Assembly (NCBI GenBank): GCA_035532135.1 | Contig: DATKRQ010000041.1 | Coordinates: 1-28,846, forward strand | Origin: Candidatus Tyrphobacter sp. | GTDB lineage: Bacteria > Patescibacteriota > Minisyncoccia > UBA6257 > Colwellbacteraceae | Direction of reading: 5' to 3' | Length of the DNA stretch: 28,846 bases | Shown here: positions 7,347-16,725 of the stretch, in pieces | Numbering within the stretch: position 1 is the first letter of the stretch | Layout of the letters: each line of letters begins with the position of its first letter | Program-made: the position numbers and the translations under genes | The notes under the pieces: model-generated | What the model was told of the DNA's origin: nothing | Databases searched by the model: none | The model's input: the letters and a program-made list of their open reading frames with translations, nothing else

Positions 7347-7525
7347 TGTCCCCGGCAGGAATCGAACCCGCAACCTCTTGGTTCCCCGCCTGCCTTTGCC
7401 GTGCCCCCGGAGGGACTCGAACCCCCAATGATTGCTTCGAAGGCAACTATGATATCCATTTCACCACGGGGGCAAATTACGGCGGGCAGGGAAGCCAAGC
7501 GCTCTATCCGTTGAGCTACGGGGAC
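7347..7525 (-). tRNA. Interrupted tRNA-Arg (joined anticodon most simply TCG): 5' half 7491-7525, 3' half 7347-7384, 106-nt insert at 35/36
   Basis: Halves gtccccgtagctcaacggatagagcgcttggcttc and gaaccaagaggttgcgggttcgattcctgccggggaca join to a 73-nt cloverleaf with A20, C35 and A73 (Arg identity). The exact junction is slightly ambiguous because of C/G runs. Confidence 0.88.
7402..7473 (-). tRNA. tRNA-Arg(TCG), intact, nested inside the interrupted tRNA-Arg
   Basis: gcccccg-tg-gtgaaatggatatcat-a-gttgc-ctTCGaa-gcaat-catt-ggggg-ttcgagt-ccctc-cgggggc-a (72 nt). Confidence 0.95.
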
Positions 7526-7577
7526 ATTGAGGCGACAATTCGAAAATCTTTATAAATTTAGGTTATAATGCCCTTAA

Positions 7578-9035
7578 ATGCAATTGACTTTCCCGAAGGA
7601 AATCAGGGCAATCATCGAGCTTTTAAAGAAGGAGGGGTTCGCTACTTTTTTGGTTGGCGGCTGCGTCCGCGATCTTCTAATCGGCCGCGAGCCCCAGGAT
7701 TGGGACGTGGCGACCGACGCTAAGCCGGCCGAAATCCAGAAGGTGTTTCCGGAAAGCGTTTACGAGAACCAGTTCGGCACGGTGGCGGTCAAAACGGGAA
7801 GCGAAGAAGAAAAACTTAAGCTCATTGAAGTAACTACCTTTCGGGAAGAAGGAAAGTACAGCGACCGGCGGCACCCCGACGAAATTAAATTCACCAAAAC
7901 CATCGAGGAAGATCTTTCGCGGCGGGATTTCACGATCAACGCCATCGCGCTTGGCGGATCGGATTCCGAAATCATCGACCCCTATGGCGGCCAATCTGAT
8001 TTAAAAAAGAAGGTTATTAAAGCGGTCGGCAATCCAGACGAGAGATTTGGCGAAGATGCCTTGCGGATGATGCGGGCGGTCAGACTTTCGGCGGAATTGG
8101 GATTTGAAATCGAAGCGGGGACGGCCGAGGCGATAAAGAAGAATTCGGCTCTCCTGAAATTTATGGCCGAGGAAAGGGTGAGAGACGAGCTTGTTAAAAT
8201 TGTCCTCTCGCCTCGGGCCAAGGAGGCCATCGAGGAACTGGAACGGATCAGTCTCCTTAAATATATTATTCCCGAACTGCGCGAGGGCCTGGGGATGAGC
8301 CAGAATCTCCATCACATCTATACCGTCTGGGAGCATAATCTGCGGGCCCTGGATTACGCGGTGGGCAAGAACTATGATTTAGTAGTCAGGCTTGCCGCTC
8401 TGCTTCACGATGTGGGAAAGCCCCGCACTAAAAGAGGCGAAGGGCCCCACGCCACTTTCTATAATCACGAGGTAGCGGGGGCGAGGATGACCCAGAAAAT
8501 AATGGAGCGGCTTAAATTCCCGAAGGATGTTTCCGAACGGGTAGTTCATTTGGTGCGCTTTCATCTTTTTTATTATAACGTGGGCGAGGTGACCGAAGCT
8601 GGCGTTCGGCGCTTCCTCCAGCGAGTGGGGGTGGAGAACGTGGACGACTTGATGAGAATTCGGGAAGCCGACCGGATCGGTTCGGGCGTGCCCAAGGCCG
8701 TGCCTTATAAATTGAGACACCTAAGGTTCATGATCGACAAGGTGCGGCAGGATCCCATTTCACCGAAGATGCTTAAAGTGAACGGAACGGACGTGATGGA
8801 GATTCTTCGCCTTGAGCCGAGCCCCAAAGTGGGGTATATTTTAGCCGCCCTCCTTGAGGAAGTCTTGGACAAGCCTGAGAGGAATGAAAAGGATTATCTT
8901 GTTTCGAGAATGAAAGAACTCGATAAGATGAGCGAGGGCGAGTTGAAGAGGCTTTTCGAATCGGCCAGGAAAAAGAAGGAAGAATTTGAAGGCGAAGCCG
9001 AAAGAGAAATAAAGGAAAAGTATTATGTGAAGTAA
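7578..9035 (+). CDS. cca: CCA tRNA nucleotidyltransferase with HD domain
   Basis: VGGCVRDLL, DWDVATD, FREEGKY loop, DLSRRDFTINA, EDALRMMRA, LLHDVGK. Confidence 0.9.
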   Translation: MQLTFPKEIRAIIELLKKEGFATFLVGGCVRDLLIGREPQDWDVATDAKPAEIQKVFPESVYENQFGTVAVKTGSEEEKLKLIEVTTFREEGKYSDRRHPDEIKFTKTIEEDLSRRDFTINAIALGGSDSEIIDPYGGQSDLKKKVIKAVGNPDERFGEDALRMMRAVRLSAELGFEIEAGTAEAIKKNSALLKFMAEERVRDELVKIVLSPRAKEAIEELERISLLKYIIPELREGLGMSQNLHHIYTVWEHNLRALDYAVGKNYDLVVRLAALLHDVGKPRTKRGEGPHATFYNHEVAGARMTQKIMERLKFPKDVSERVVHLVRFHLFYYNVGEVTEAGVRRFLQRVGVENVDDLMRIREADRIGSGVPKAVPYKLRHLRFMIDKVRQDPISPKMLKVNGTDVMEILRLEPSPKVGYILAALLEEVLDKPERNEKDYLVSRMKELDKMSEGELKRLFESARKKKEEFEGEAEREIKEKYYVK

Positions 9036-10139: not shown

Positions 10140-11300
10140 ATGATTGAGCGGGGAATAGCGACTTTTACGCTTGACGACGGGAAGTGCCCGAAGTGGCTTT
10201 TCGAGCGGATGGTTAAGCTTGGGCGCGAGATGATTCGGGCGATCGTGGCTGAGGAGGGAGCGGACGAATTTGTGAGGCGCCTCGGGGATCCGGTCTGGTT
10301 CCAGTCCTTGGGCACGGTCTTGGCTTTCGACTGGAACGCTTCGGGCCTCACGACCATTTTGACGGCCGCCTTGAAGGAAGCCATCCGGCGGGAAGAAAAT
10401 GATCTGGGAATCTTCATCTGCGGCGGCAAGGGGAAGACTTCGAGAAAGACGCCAGAGGAAATTTTGCGCTGGGGCGAGGCGGCTAATTTTTCCGAATCAA
10501 AGGTCAATTCTTTGATATATAACTCCCGGATGGCGGCCAAGGTGGATAGTGCCCTCGTTCAGGACGGATTCCAGATTTATCATCACGCTTTTTTCTTCAG
10601 CCGGAACGGAGCCTGGACAGTGGTCCAGCAGGGGATGAATACCAGGAATCAAACGGCCCGGCGTTATCACTGGCATTCGAAGAACCTGACGGATCTCATT
10701 AAGGAACCTCATTCGGGCATCGCGAGCCAGACAAAAATAAAAAAGGTTCTCAATCTCACGGCCGGAGAAAGCGGAAAGACCCGCGAGATAAGCGTCGAAC
10801 TTGTTTCCCAGAATTTTCCGACCTTGTTCAAAGATATAAAAATCCTGAGGAAATATTCGACGCCGGTTTCTCAGATGGCCAAGCTCGCGACCCAACGGGG
10901 CCAGCTCACCTTGCTCAATCTGGAAGACGCCGAGTTTTCCCGTCATCCGGTGGTGAATGAAAATTTCAGCCAAAGCAAATATCTCGAGAAAATTCTCTGG
11001 AAGCTCTGCGACGAGAAACCGAAAAATTACGAAGAGTTGGTAAGCAAGGCGGGGGTGGGGCCGAAAACCGTTCGGGCGCTGGCGCTGGTGGCTGAAATAA
11101 TCTACGGAGCGAAACCTTCTTACGAAGACCCGGCCCGCTATAGCTTCGCTCACGGCGGGAAAGACGGCACGCCCTATCCCGTCGACCGAGTAACCTACGA
11201 TCGGACGATTGAGTCGATTAAAAGATACGTTTCCCGCTCAAGGCCCGAATCTCGAAATTCCGAGTTATCCACACTCGGAGAAGCGTCGGGCGTGGTATAA
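10140..11300 (+). CDS. DUF763-family protein
   Basis: DPVWFQSLGTVLAFDWNASGLTT, VQQGMN, RRYHW, SFAHGGKDG.PYPVD, and HhH-like GVGPKT. Confidence 0.85.
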   Translation: MIERGIATFTLDDGKCPKWLFERMVKLGREMIRAIVAEEGADEFVRRLGDPVWFQSLGTVLAFDWNASGLTTILTAALKEAIRREENDLGIFICGGKGKTSRKTPEEILRWGEAANFSESKVNSLIYNSRMAAKVDSALVQDGFQIYHHAFFFSRNGAWTVVQQGMNTRNQTARRYHWHSKNLTDLIKEPHSGIASQTKIKKVLNLTAGESGKTREISVELVSQNFPTLFKDIKILRKYSTPVSQMAKLATQRGQLTLLNLEDAEFSRHPVVNENFSQSKYLEKILWKLCDEKPKNYEELVSKAGVGPKTVRALALVAEIIYGAKPSYEDPARYSFAHGGKDGTPYPVDRVTYDRTIESIKRYVSRSRPESRNSELSTLGEASGVV

Positions 11301-12175: not shown

Positions 12176-12943
12176 TCCCTTCGTGAAGATGAGTCGAAAG
12201 AGAGCAAGCATGAACGGCTGAAGAGGTCTCAGGTTTAGAGTGTCTCAGCGGCCGCTTCAAAGCGGCTTTTTCTTTCCTGCCGAGACGGCAAACGACTCGA
12301 CTGAAGTTTGACAATCAAATAGAGAAATAGAAACAAGGTGAGCATTTAAATGACCGTTTCTCGAAAATTTGAGGGTTATTAAGAGCGTATGGTGGATGCC
12401 TTGACGCAAAGTAGCGATGAAGGACGCGGCGTAGCGGCGATACGCCTCGGGGAGGTGCGTAGCAACCTTTGATCCGGGGATTTCCGAATGGGAAAACCTA
12501 ATCTGGCAAACCCAGATTGTTTCGAGCTTAAAAACTCGAATCGCACACCCGCTGAAGTGAAACATCTCAGTAAGCGGAGGAAAAGAAATCAAGTCTGTCC
12601 CTTGAGGGGCAGAAATATTCCCTAAGTAGCGGCGAGCGAAATGGGAAGAGCCCAAACCTCGATTTTTTGGCGCAAGTCAGAAAAACGGGGGGTTGTAAGA
12701 CTGGAAAATTTTAGTTGTTAACTATTGGTCCTAATTAATTTTAGTTATCAATAGTTAACGACTAAGGCTGGTTACAAATTGCTTTGTTAGTTGAAGGGAT
12801 TGGAAAGTCCCGCCAAAGAGAGTGAAAGCCTCGTAAACGAAAACAACAGCAACCAGTTTTTCTTGATCTTGAGTACTTCGAAGAATGAAAACTTTGAAGG
12901 AATCATCCTGAACTATCAGGAAAGGCTAAATATACTTTGTGAT

Positions 12944-12980
<37 letters not shown>

Positions 12981-15133
12981 CAGCCCTGTTAGGGCGGTGA
13001 AATAGACCTGAAACCGTACGCTTACAAAGAGTCGGAGCCCGGTCGCGTCGCTTGCGACGCGATGGGTGACGGCGTGCCTATTGAAGAATGAACCAACGAG
13101 TTTATCTTATTCCTTTGTCTAAGTTCCACGGAACGGAGGCGGAGGGAAACCGAGTCTTAATAGGGCGTCCCGCCGCAAGGCGGGGGAGGGATGAGATAAG
13201 ACCCGAAGCCAAGCGAGCTTGCCCCGGCCAGGGTGAACCCCGCCGAAAGGTGGGGGGAGGCCCGAACCGGTTGATCGTGCAACATCTTCGGATGAGCTGG
13301 GGTAAGAAGTGAAAAGCTAATCGAGCTTGGGAATAGCTGGTTCTCTCCGAAACAGTTTTAGGACTGGCGTCACGTGTTTCCTTCTGGGGGTAGAGCACTG
13401 GAAGGGCTTGAAAGGGCGAAAGCTCGCGAGCCCTATCAAACTCCGAATACCAGAAGATTAAAACGTGGCAGTTAGACTACGGGGGCTAAGCTCCGTGGTC
13501 GAGAGGGAAAAAGCCCTGATCGCCGTCTAAGGTCCCTAAATTTCTGCTAAGTGTTAAAGGTGGTCGCAAACCAGAGACAGGTAGGAGGTTGGCTTAGAGG
13601 TAGCCATCCTTTAAAGAGTGTGTAACAACTCACTACTCGATGGTTTACGGCGCCGAAAATTTACCGGGGCTAAAGCAGAATACCGAAGACGCGAATCCCG
13701 CCGCAAGGCGGGGTGGTAGGAGAGCATTCCTAACGCAGTGAAGCTCCAGCCGCGAGGCGGAGTGGAGCGTTGGGAAGAGAGAATGTTGGTATGAGTAACC
13801 TCAAAGTCAGTGAGAAACTGGCTCCCCGAAAATCCAAGGTTTCCGTGGCACTGGCAATCATCCACGGGTTAGGCGATCCTAAGGCAATGGCGAAAGCCGC
13901 AGCTAAATGGGAAGCTGGTTAATATTCCAGCCCTTCCGTATTTTTCGATGGAGTGACGGAAGACAGTAGACGAGGCACCTTATTGGTTTGGTGTCCTTGA
14001 TCGAGGACGATATCCAGGCAAATCCGGATATCTGCTTTTAATGGCGCGTCTCAGTTAAAAGGCGAGTCGGGGTTTTTGCCTCGGCAAGTTCGTCGAGCGT
14101 CTTTCCCAGAAAAACTTCTAAGGTTAGGAATATGGAAATCGTACCGGAAACCGACACAGGTGGATAGGGCGAGAAGCCCAAGGGGAACGAGTGATTCTCC
14201 GTTAAGGAACTCGGCAAAAAAGCGGCCGTAAGTTAGCAATAAGGCCTTCCCGCCAACGATATAGAAATATAAAGAAAGCGGGACGCAGCGAAAGTATCTC
14301 TGGCGACTGTTTATCAAAAACACAGCTCCCTGCGAACTCGTAAGAGGATGTATAGGGGGTGACGCCTGACCGATGCGAGAAGGTTAAGACTGGCGGTGGC
14401 GTGTAGCAATATGCGCTGCTGACTGGTTAAAGCCCTCGTCAATGTCAGCGGTAACTATAACCGTTCTAAGGTAGCGCATTTCCTTTTCGGGTAAGTTCCG
14501 AAGCGCACGAATGGCGTAACGACTGGAGAACTGTCTCAACGGAGAGCTCGGTGAAAATGCGATTCCCGTGAAGACGCGGGATACCTGCAGCGGGACGAAA
14601 AGACCCCGGGAGCTTTACTGTAGTCTGGTATTGGCTCTAGGGTTTGGCTGCGTAGTGTAGCGGGTAGGCTTTGAAGCTCCGATTTCGGTTGGAGTGGAGC
14701 CAACAATGAAACACCCGCCTTCCAAACTTTAGAATCTAACCAATGCGGCAAAAACGCATCGGGACAGTGCTTGATGGGCAGTTTTTCTGGGGCGGAATCC
14801 TCCTAAAGAGTAACGGAGGAGTTTATCAAGGTCAGCTAGGGTCGGATGGAAATCGACCTGGTCGCGTAAAGGCAGAAGCTGGCTTGACTGCAAGACTTAC
14901 AAGTCGCGCAGGTGCGAAAGCAGAACTTAGCGACCCGACGGCTCTTTATAGAAAGGCCGAAGATATCGGACAAAAGCTACCCCGGGGATAACAGGCTGGT
15001 TTCGTCCGAGCGTCCACAGCGACGACGAAGCTCGGCACCTCGATGTCGGCTCGCCCTAGCTCGGGGCTGAAGAAGGTCCCAAGAGTTTGGCTGTTCGCCA
15101 ATTAAAAGGGCACGCGAGCTGGGTTCAAACCGT

Positions 15134-15454
15134 CAAAAGAACCATATTACATCGATAATCACACGGCGGCGCAGAAGAGTAATCTTCTGCTGAGAAGTTG
15201 ACTCATATCGGTGAAGTCCTAACAATACGTTGCGACATCAACCTGTCGTATGTTGGGATAATACCGAGGGAAGTCGTACGTGCCTCTCTTCTTAAAGAGA
15301 GACGTGTATTGACCCCGTAGAGACTTGATCCGAATGGATCAGATTCGCCAATCGGCGGATAACACGTCAACCTCCTTTGATGCGTTCAGGATTTATTCTG
15401 AGCCTGTCGAAGGATGATGGTATAGTCCATACAATTAGTAATAATTGATTCATG
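15134..15454 (+). mobile_element. Group I intron (IA-like) at 23S position L2593, no ORF, 321 nt
   Basis: Exon aaaccgU|...uucaUG|cgtgagacag. Guide cacg+gcgg (15163-15170) pairs with the 3' exon cgtg (P10) and 5' exon ccgt (P1). P3 gttgac/gtcaac, P7 gact/agtc, P7.1 and P7.2 hairpins. Confidence 0.92.
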
Positions 15455-15517
15455 CGTGAGACAGGTTGGTCTCTATCTGCTGCAGGCGTTTAACATCTGA
15501 AGGAAGTCAACCCTAGT

Positions 15518-16268
15518 AAGCAATTTGCTACTTCGCGAAGTAATTCGCGATGACAATTCGGCTAATAACGGTGAAGTCTTGTAATGTTTGTTTCCGTTGA
15601 TAACAAAATTTACTTGCGGTCCAATAAATTTTGTACTTGAGGACCAAAATATTGTAAGATAATACCGTGGGAAGTCGGTCTAAAACTAATTTTGCTTATA
15701 TAGCCGGTTTTCTGGATGGCGATGGTAGCCTAATGCTTCAATTGAAAAAACGTAAGGATGGTAATAAGTCTCGGAACAGATTTATGGCGACCATCTGTTT
15801 TTATCAAGACATTCGGCACGCAAAACCATTGATTTGGATTCGTAATATTCTCGAAATTGGATATATATCCAAGAGAAAAGACAATATTGCCGAATTAAGA
15901 ATCAATGGCTATCGTCAGATTGAAGGATTGATAAAAGAATTGCTTCCTTTTATCAAATTTAAAAAGGTTCAGGCGAAATCTCTCTTGAAGTCAATAAAAA
16001 TTCTTCAAAAAAAGAAATTGCCGGAATCAGACTTGAGAAAACTGGTAGATAATATTCTTCTTATTCAGGAAGAGAATTATCGGACAAGAAGAAAGAAAAA
16101 TAAGCGAGAATTACTTAAGGTTTTAGGCTTGACCCCGTAACGACTGGATCCTCGCCGATGGCGGGGTGAAGATAGCGTTCGAACGCTATAACACGCCGAT
16201 CTCCCACCAGGCGGAAGCCTGAGGAGAAAGATATAGTCTACGCACATAGTGATATGTGATTTTACGTG
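15518..16268 (+). mobile_element. Group I intron (IA-like) in the sarcin-ricin loop (after U2656), 751 nt, with homing endonuclease
   Basis: Exon ccctagU|...acgtG|acgagaggacc restores CUAGUACGAGAGGAC. P1 tagt/gcta with U.G pair, P3 cggc/gccg, P7 gact/agtc with aagatatagtc, P7.1, P7.2 and P8 present. Confidence 0.92.
15667..16140 (+). CDS. Single-motif LAGLIDADG homing endonuclease (I-CreI-like)
   Basis: AYIAGFLDGDGS motif, F.Q motif, LLPFIKFKK.QA. AT-rich and located in the intron P6 loop. Confidence 0.93.
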   Translation: MGSRSKTNFAYIAGFLDGDGSLMLQLKKRKDGNKSRNRFMATICFYQDIRHAKPLIWIRNILEIGYISKRKDNIAELRINGYRQIEGLIKELLPFIKFKKVQAKSLLKSIKILQKKKLPESDLRKLVDNILLIQEENYRTRRKKNKRELLKVLGLTP

Positions 16269-16616
16269 ACGAGAGGACCGGGTTGAACGAACCTCTGGTG
16301 TACCGGCTTTGGTACCAACTGAATTGCCGGGTAGCTAAGTTCGGCCGGGATAAGCGCTGAAAGCATCTAAGTGCGAAGCCCACCCTAAGATTAGATGTAG
16401 GTCCCTGGAAGATGACCAGGTTGATAGGCTTTAGGTATAAGCTCCGTAAGGAGTGTTTATCTTTGATTTTGAAAGATCGACGGACGAGCTTTCTTCGGAA
16501 AGCGAAGCTGAAGGTTTGGAAGATGAAAGGATTTAGCCAAGAAGTACTAATAGACCGAAAAACCTTCAATTTTCGAAGCGGTCATTTAAATGTCCATCTT
16601 GTTTTCTTTAGTGATT

Positions 16617-16725
16617 TCCCGGTGATCTAGTCGGAAGTGTCCCACCTCTTCCCTTTCCGAACAGAGAAGTGAAAGCTTCCGACACCGATGATAGTTCGTT
16701 AGAGCAAAAGTAGGTTTCGCCGGGA
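16617..16725 (+). rRNA. rrf: 5S rRNA (ends approximate)
   Basis: tcccggtg...ccacctcttccctttccgaacagagaagtgaa...agtagg...ccggga, with terminal helix pairing. Confidence 0.92.

Follow-up and report, generated by a model that had tools for sequence, protein, structure and literature searches.

Integrative elements such as prophages, genomic islands and ICEs target tRNA genes, often in the anticodon or T loop, and bring with them sequence that replaces what their insertion displaces, and the host keeps a working tRNA. The locus described here is alike in these respects. It lies in a window of 28,846 nt (the whole stretch of DNA that was analysed), where the anticodon loop of one tRNA-Arg gene is occupied by a cassette with a complete tRNA-Arg of its own, an arrangement that we call the nest. 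Integrative elements, however, span kilobases and have an integrase gene, and what they restore is limited to the displaced 3' part of their target, as a direct repeat, whereas the cassette measures 106 nt and carries a whole tRNA alone. It is bounded by inverted repeats, and both halves of the broken gene persist on either side of it, as complementary parts of one gene rather than as repeats. Moreover, no match to the Phage_integrase family (tyrosine recombinases of the XerC/D type) was found in the 95%-complete host genome.

In archaea, GC-rich complementary sequences flank the tRNA break in introns and in the split and tri-split tRNAs of Nanoarchaeum and Caldivirga, as they do here, and the archaeal introns interrupt tRNA genes at anticodon-, D- and T-loop positions. 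The mobile tRNA introns of Thermoproteales are cited in PMC10714607 as behaving as mobile elements. Archaeal introns need a bulge-helix-bulge, EndA and RtcB, none of which is present at the nest or in its host genome; the host, unlike the organisms of the archaeal systems, is a bacterium, and its genome has a bacterial 23S rRNA and RNase P RNA. To our knowledge, no archaeal intron has been reported that contains a whole tRNA with the anticodon of its target.

Group I introns interrupt the anticodon loop of bacterial tRNA genes, including those for Arg (bioRxiv 10.1101/2020.01.27.920355), and the break in the nest likewise falls inside the anticodon loop. The nest differs from them in that the base before the cut is C rather than the usual U and in that its content is a tRNA. 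The group I catalytic core (Intron_gpI) had no match in the nest at the gathering threshold or at E <= 10, and no other intron or ribozyme family of Rfam matched it, even at E <= 10. The insert, at 106 nt, is also shorter than group I introns, which in general measure some 200 nt or more.

Finally, MITEs, REP/BIME sequences, Rickettsia palindromic elements and rRNA intervening sequences are noncoding elements of about 100 nt with a terminal inverted repeat, present in many copies across genomes, and the palindromic repeats and intervening sequences insert into loops of structured RNA genes. Insertions in the rRNA of the CPR are described in PMC11270868. The cassette is likewise a short element with a terminal inverted repeat and without coding capacity. 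Intervening sequences of the RNase III type have an extended stem in place of a loop, which the enzyme cuts and which is not religated; at the nest an extended stem is present. Unlike the MITE- and REP-like repeats, the cassette has no target-site duplication. It is present in a single copy, no further copies of its arms being found in the host genome. We know of no MITE, REP or intervening sequence family with a functional gene at its centre that is matched to the target.

The nest lacks defining features of the integrative elements, the archaeal systems, the group I introns and the MITE- and REP-like repeats. The reading we prefer, to which we give a probability of roughly 70%, is that a small non-autonomous cassette broke a resident tRNA-Arg(UCG) gene and supplies its replacement, which is freed by ordinary tRNA processing. 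We found no description of tRNA cassettes nested in cognate tRNAs in the literature, and both the element type and its cognate targeting appear to be undescribed.

A tRNA gene inside a tRNA gene

The host is an ultra-small soil bacterium of the Patescibacteria (CPR), with a genome of 491 kb in 68 contigs, 95% complete and with 50% G+C. On the minus strand, positions 7525 to 7347 of the window consist of five parts, namely a 5' tRNA half, an arm with its linker, a complete tRNA-Arg(TCG), a second linker with its arm, and a 3' tRNA half (Table 1). An earlier note, made by reading the DNA letters, had described a tRNA nested in the anticodon loop of another, and sequence, ARAGORN and Rfam agree that it placed all of the parts correctly. 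Two of its measurements have been refined. The arms, given as 17 nt, are in the right position, but they resolve into a conserved arm of 10 nt (CCTGCCCGCC / GGCAGGCGGG) and, at either side, a linker of 7 nt, the 3' stretch coming to 16-17 nt; and the inner tRNA, given as 72 nt, is indeed a complete tRNA-Arg(TCG), for which ARAGORN gives 73 nt, counting position 7401 in the tRNA and not in the arm.

Exactly 106 nt (7490-7385) separate anticodon base 35 of the outer tRNA-Arg(UCG) gene from base 36. Its 5' half holds the acceptor strand, the D arm, the 5' anticodon stem and loop bases 32-35, ending CTTC, and its 3' half holds loop bases 36-38 (GAA), the 3' anticodon stem, the variable loop, the T arm, the acceptor strand and the discriminator. 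Joined at CUUGGCUUC/GAACCAAG, the halves give a 73-nt tRNA-Arg(TCG) cloverleaf with all stems paired and one G.U in the T stem (ARAGORN), which bears out the claim that they are intact in every arm. When 15 x 15 junction offsets around the arm ends were compared, the anticodon TCG was restored only by exact excision of the 106 nt. The inner and outer tRNAs have the same anticodon, TCG, and are just 69% identical, so that the strong difference between them noted previously also holds. CCA is not encoded in the inner gene. The TTT of the 5' linker, together with the first GCC of the inner tRNA, is able to pair with the GGCAAA of the 3' linker, and a short second helix equivalent to TTTGCC/GGCAAA is present in other members of the arm family described below. 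As had been anticipated for standard tRNA finders, ARAGORN reports only the inner gene and not the interrupted outer one, and so does Rfam.

Table 1. Features of the nest, of the rest of the window and of related loci (positions are those of the window unless a locus or contig is named).
Feature	Position or locus	Strand	Basis
Outer tRNA-Arg(UCG), 3' half, 38 nt	7347..7384	-	sequence; ARAGORN cloverleaf; X4 contig joint 7384>7491
Insert (arms, linkers and inner tRNA), 106 nt	7385-7490	-	sequence
3' arm GGCAGGCGGG	7385..7394	-	fold pairing; arm-pattern scans
3' linker GGCAAA	7395..7400	-	sequence
Inner (cargo) tRNA-Arg(UCG), 73 nt	7401..7473	-	ARAGORN; Rfam tRNA, 62.2 bits
5' linker GTAATTT, from arm to inner tRNA	7474..7480	-	sequence
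5' arm CCTGCCCGCC, terminal inverted repeat defining the family	7481..7490	-	pairs with 7385-7394 in the fold; identical arm bounds other cassettes
Outer tRNA-Arg(UCG), 5' half, 35 nt	7491..7525	-	sequence; ARAGORN cloverleaf of joined halves
CCA-adding enzyme gene, outside the element, divergent from the nest	7578..9035	+	Pfam; tblastn synteny in relatives
DUF763 ORF	10140-11297	+	
tRNA-Lys(ttt) call with 406-nt intron, probably false	10778-11279	-	ARAGORN (introns allowed)
rRNA genes	12369-16725		
23S rRNA gene	12369-15191		
5S rRNA gene	16618-16725		
Orphan T-arm (locus L311)	G000:C7:515-531	-	
Non-tRNA elements with the same arms	L151, L153, L156, L158, L159, L163, L166, L169, L172, L174, L176, L183, L186, L189, L196, L198, L206, L207, L213, L216, L222, L225, L227-L229		
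Mini hairpins	L303 (G125:C26), L015, L160, L199; L289, L304, L173		

In the minimum free energy fold of the 179 nt, the outer cloverleaf is kept and its anticodon stem is lengthened by the arm helix, as the earlier reading had it. The extension consists of a 1-nt bulge followed by 9 + 3 arm pairs with one mismatch, the 10-nt arms themselves pairing with one wobble and one mismatch. With z = -3.55, a value equalled by none of 200 shuffles, the fold is strongly stable. Such stability, along with the conservation of the arms across very distant genomes, would suit a composite RNA that is functional in itself, either as a tRNA-like scaffold for the processing or stability of the inner tRNA or as a regulatory RNA. 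We consider this very improbable, since in other genomes the decay of the outer halves is unhindered, the same tRNA type is expressed without them in most relatives, and Rfam matches tRNA only.

The nest is not a misassembly. The junctions, for which the earlier note had advised confirmation from reads, are both covered by per-run contigs that match the window without a difference, at 7360-7736 in run X1 and at 7355-7520 in run X2. Because these two soil runs are possibly the source samples of the genome, the stronger argument for the reality of the nest is that its architecture recurs across dozens of independent assemblies. tRNA genes are repeats able to mislead assemblers, and the copy of a relative (G058, L005/L095) stops at a contig edge; but with both junctions spanned and the same architecture in so many assemblies, the chance that two tRNA-Arg genes were wrongly joined is close to nil.

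The nest lies beside genes for GrpB, a hydrolase and the CCA-adding enzyme. In the family, Pfam matches and tblastn synteny define a conserved locus with the order RecG, tRNA-Lys(CUU), tRNA-Arg(UCG), CCA-adding enzyme and tRNA-Pro(CGG). The inner gene is the sole contiguous UCG isoacceptor gene in the host genome. Other Arg isoacceptors, whose presence had been raised as a point to check, do exist, though as CCG and UCU genes only, and a second contiguous UCG gene does not.

Relatives and the arm-defined family

The outer gene is the normal resident gene at the conserved locus. Uninterrupted copies, a search for which the earlier note had suggested, were found in two relatives: beside the CCA-enzyme gene in G005, 88% identical to the joined halves (94% for the host's 5' half against the corresponding 5' part), and at the syntenic locus in G014, 81% identical. 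In read-derived contigs an uninterrupted copy nearly identical to the outer gene of the host was recovered as well. There, a 562-nt contig of another organism, from the mine-drainage run X4, joins 7384 straight to 7491 and skips exactly 106 nt, as does a weaker contig in X2. The filled site thus reads CTTC, 106 nt, GAA and the empty site CTTCGAA, with a difference of exactly 106 nt and no target-site duplication.

The inner type stands alone at the CCA-enzyme locus in most relatives, in either orientation, and the inner gene is 79-89% identical to these stand-alone Arg(UCG) genes. In addition, a metagenome contig (L203) has the nest reversed: a gene of the inner type is interrupted by one of the outer type, with identical arms and again at 35/36. 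It follows from the stand-alone genes and the reversed nest that the two Arg(UCG) types replace each other. A first wide scan of genome contigs, in which the 5' anchor was just ATAGAR, gave 80 loci, mostly stand-alone Arg genes or chance matches, with five nests among them. Arg-in-Arg nests were seen in L088 (same arms, same 35/36 site), L064 (same arms, 33/34 split), L081 (different arms, 33/34 split), G058 (at a contig end) and G052, where additional hairpins lie in the outer gene and its acceptor stem is mismatched. In every Arg nest examined, the outer halves still total a 7-nt loop with UCG, although the split point varies. If the preferred reading is true, it would explain why a single conserved locus holds now one, now the other of two unrelated tRNA-Arg(UCG) types in the family.

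The arms provide a ready search handle for further cassettes. The exact-arm pattern, with a gap of 75-105 nt, was scanned against metagenomes and 401 genomes sampled across the phylum. The arm pair was found in 16 of the 401 genomes and the backwards control pattern in none, and for this reason the pair is not attributed to chance. It reaches up to 3 copies in other genomes and many copies across metagenomes. Given that many of the metagenome and viral arm matches were chance matches on GC-rich contigs, only low-GC contigs with an extended end motif were kept. After this removal, at least 34 distinct exact-arm cassettes with a tRNA inside remained, covering 17 anticodons, so that the same arms do occur with other cargo, as the earlier note had proposed to check. 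Cargo among the cassettes listed comprises tRNAs for Thr, Arg, Val, Gly, Ala, Lys, Leu, Gln, Pro, Trp and Cys.

All 34 cassettes among the matches listed are flanked by tRNA remains, with the outer anticodon equal to that of the cargo wherever it is readable, and none of the 34 lies outside a cognate tRNA. The family inserts in the D loop, in the anticodon loop (35/36 or 37/38) and in the T loop, and the arms are oriented forward relative to the tRNA in 27 of the cassettes listed and in reverse in 7. The outer gene could be restored by simple excision in 18/34 of those listed; in the other 16 it is further damaged by hairpins, truncations or mismatches. One contig, L214, has three nested layers. 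The arms define a family of tRNA cassettes in Patescibacteria, and the nest would be one instance of a tRNA gene turnover that is widespread in these bacteria and apparently undescribed. Of the two outcomes envisaged in the earlier note, these data support the mobile palindrome, by which the outer gene was disabled and a substitute tRNA brought in: the same arms carry other tRNAs into their cognates, the uninterrupted locus exists in relatives, and outer genes decay. Decay of the outer halves is thus seen in 16 of the 34 cassettes listed, and not at the nest of the host, where the outer gene is intact.

Possible fates of the outer halves and routes of entry of the cassette

On the preferred reading, the 106-nt cassette entered the resident gene between anticodon bases 35 and 36, with no duplication of the target, and the nest would be transcribed as a single precursor from the promoter of the outer gene; a consensus scan found no promoter-like site on the strand of the nest. 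RNase P, the RNA of which is present in the host genome, would cut the 5' end of the inner tRNA, and a 3' nuclease together with the CCA-adding enzyme would finish its 3' end. A clear RNase Z ortholog was not found in the host genome, though the inner tRNA has no encoded CCA. The outer halves, which the GC-rich helix of the arms would clamp and which are deprived of an anticodon loop, would be waste. Their degradation may be preceded by cleavage with RNase III, for which there is a gene fragment at the edge of a contig. Since the inner gene would now be the only tRNA-Arg(UCG) of the cell, the cassette would be impossible to lose. The outer halves would then be relics, pristine here and in all stages of decay elsewhere; the intactness of the outer gene in this host is explained equally well by selection on it and by a recent insertion.

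The other outcome proposed earlier was a split-tRNA-like route as in Nanoarchaeum, in which the arms hold the outer halves together after release of the inner tRNA, the halves are trimmed and religated, and both tRNAs function. It would agree with an outer gene intact in all stems, with the full 7-nt UCG loop kept in the Arg nests examined (whether split at 35/36, as here and in L088, or at 33/34, as in L064 and L081), with the 18 of 34 listed cassettes whose outer gene is restorable, and with the RNase III gene fragment. However, a bulge-helix-bulge (3-nt bulge, 4-bp helix, 3-nt bulge) is absent at the junctions of the 179-nt fold, and there is no ribozyme signature. RtcB (PF01139) and EndA (PF01974), which the earlier note had named as enzymes to look for, both had no match in the 95%-complete host genome, in a search whose controls were positive in archaea and, for RtcB, also in bacteria; nor was a Rnl-type RNA ligase (PF09414) found there. 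Moreover, outer genes seem dispensable, because 16 of the 34 listed carry further insertions or truncations, and the same anticodon is already supplied by the inner gene. Arms in both orientations also fit a role at the DNA level better than an RNA signal. In view of this, we give the split route little credence. It is likewise highly doubtful that enzymes of a kind other than EndA and RtcB trim the outer halves and join them again under the guidance of the arm helix. Were it true, one bacterial locus would give two different tRNA-Arg(UCG) molecules, and there would be a protein-dependent bacterial tRNA splicing in which the intron is itself a tRNA.

As to how the cassette entered, the candidates are a trans-acting enzyme that would recognise the hairpin and recombination after DNA uptake, with a crossover in the outer halves or in the arms. 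As all 34 of the listed tRNA cassettes lie within cognate tRNAs, the data point to entry that was guided by homology (homing) or took place in situ (exchange at the arms), and not to random transposition filtered by selection. No Y1 transposase was found in the host genome and no nuclease gene beside the nest, and no transposase was identified anywhere. A phage vector for the cassette was considered and is not supported, and several template-switch and duplication schemes for its mobilisation failed to reproduce the architecture of the nest.

It could also be that the cassette never moved as a unit, the arms being recombination sites or a resident hairpin, and the inner tRNA being captured or swapped in situ after DNA uptake. 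An exchange between tRNA alleles of this kind would agree with the strictly cognate placement (0/34 of the cassettes listed outside a cognate tRNA) and with the same arms, similar linkers and 35/36 site enclosing either Arg(UCG) type, the roles being reversed in L203. The cargo resembles the stand-alone type of the family itself, arms-only mini hairpins occur, and the host genome has no transposase, which also suit it. Still, no mechanism is known by which a hairpin loop is filled with a tRNA gene, a cell in which the hairpin alone had entered an essential tRNA gene present once would die before it could be rescued, and the arms are too short for efficient homologous exchange. We hold such an in-situ origin to be unlikely.

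If the replacement reading is true, tRNA genes across a large part of the bacterial tree have been replaced by a self-perpetuating trick, in which a tiny element breaks an essential single-copy gene and gives the only working copy, and hence is not losable. This would explain the tRNA relics that litter Patescibacteria genomes, and also why tRNA finders, reporting the inner gene alone, miss the evidence of tRNA gene replacement. The strict match of cargo and target points to a targeting or exchange mechanism, which is possibly useful as a tool and bears on the origin of fragmented and intron-containing tRNA genes.

Related hairpins and relics

Several observations were made beside those on the nest. 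ARAGORN, with introns allowed, also called a tRNA-Lys(ttt) inside the DUF763 ORF (Table 1). Elsewhere in the window, the rRNA genes appear to be unlinked, because no 16S gene was found in the 28.8 kb, and hence none upstream of the 23S gene. Broken tRNAs other than the nest were not found in the host genome, with the exception of one orphan T-arm on contig C7 that has an acceptor-like 3' end, lacks a 5' partner and an Rfam match, and may be a tRNA relic.

In relatives, at five loci (L055, L067, L083, L085 and L105), a stand-alone Arg(TCG) gene is followed just downstream by an inverted relic of its own 3' part, made up of the acceptor strand and a T arm and split by a hairpin, which suggests that the gene had been replaced before, in rounds that ran the other way round. 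G043 (L030 = G043:C89, and other contigs) contains many copies of the 3' half of tRNA-Arg(TCT) together with some 60 nt of flanking sequence, in the manner of attachment sites or of another tRNA-linked repeat.

Among the matches listed, some 30 elements, each about 102 nt in length, are bounded by the arms of the cassettes, have unrelated non-tRNA centres and are intergenic on low-GC contigs, with the end motifs arm + AWTGCC ... GGCGWT + arm. The idea that they break protein genes, and hence are spliced, was rejected, as the best case (L175) sits between two complete genes. Also rejected were the ideas that their interiors are copies of their own flanks, on testing, and that their conserved flanks are orthologous sites, these being conserved element ends, none of which lies within an Rfam RNA.

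Smaller hairpins occur as well. A 36-nt arms-only mini hairpin adjoins a Cys cassette, 20-nt CCTGCCTGCC/GGCAGGCAGG palindromes are likewise arms-only mini hairpins, and dead outer Thr genes hold small TCCGCC-AAA-GGCGGA hairpins at their anticodon. Invasion of tRNA loops seems to be common to several families of hairpins.
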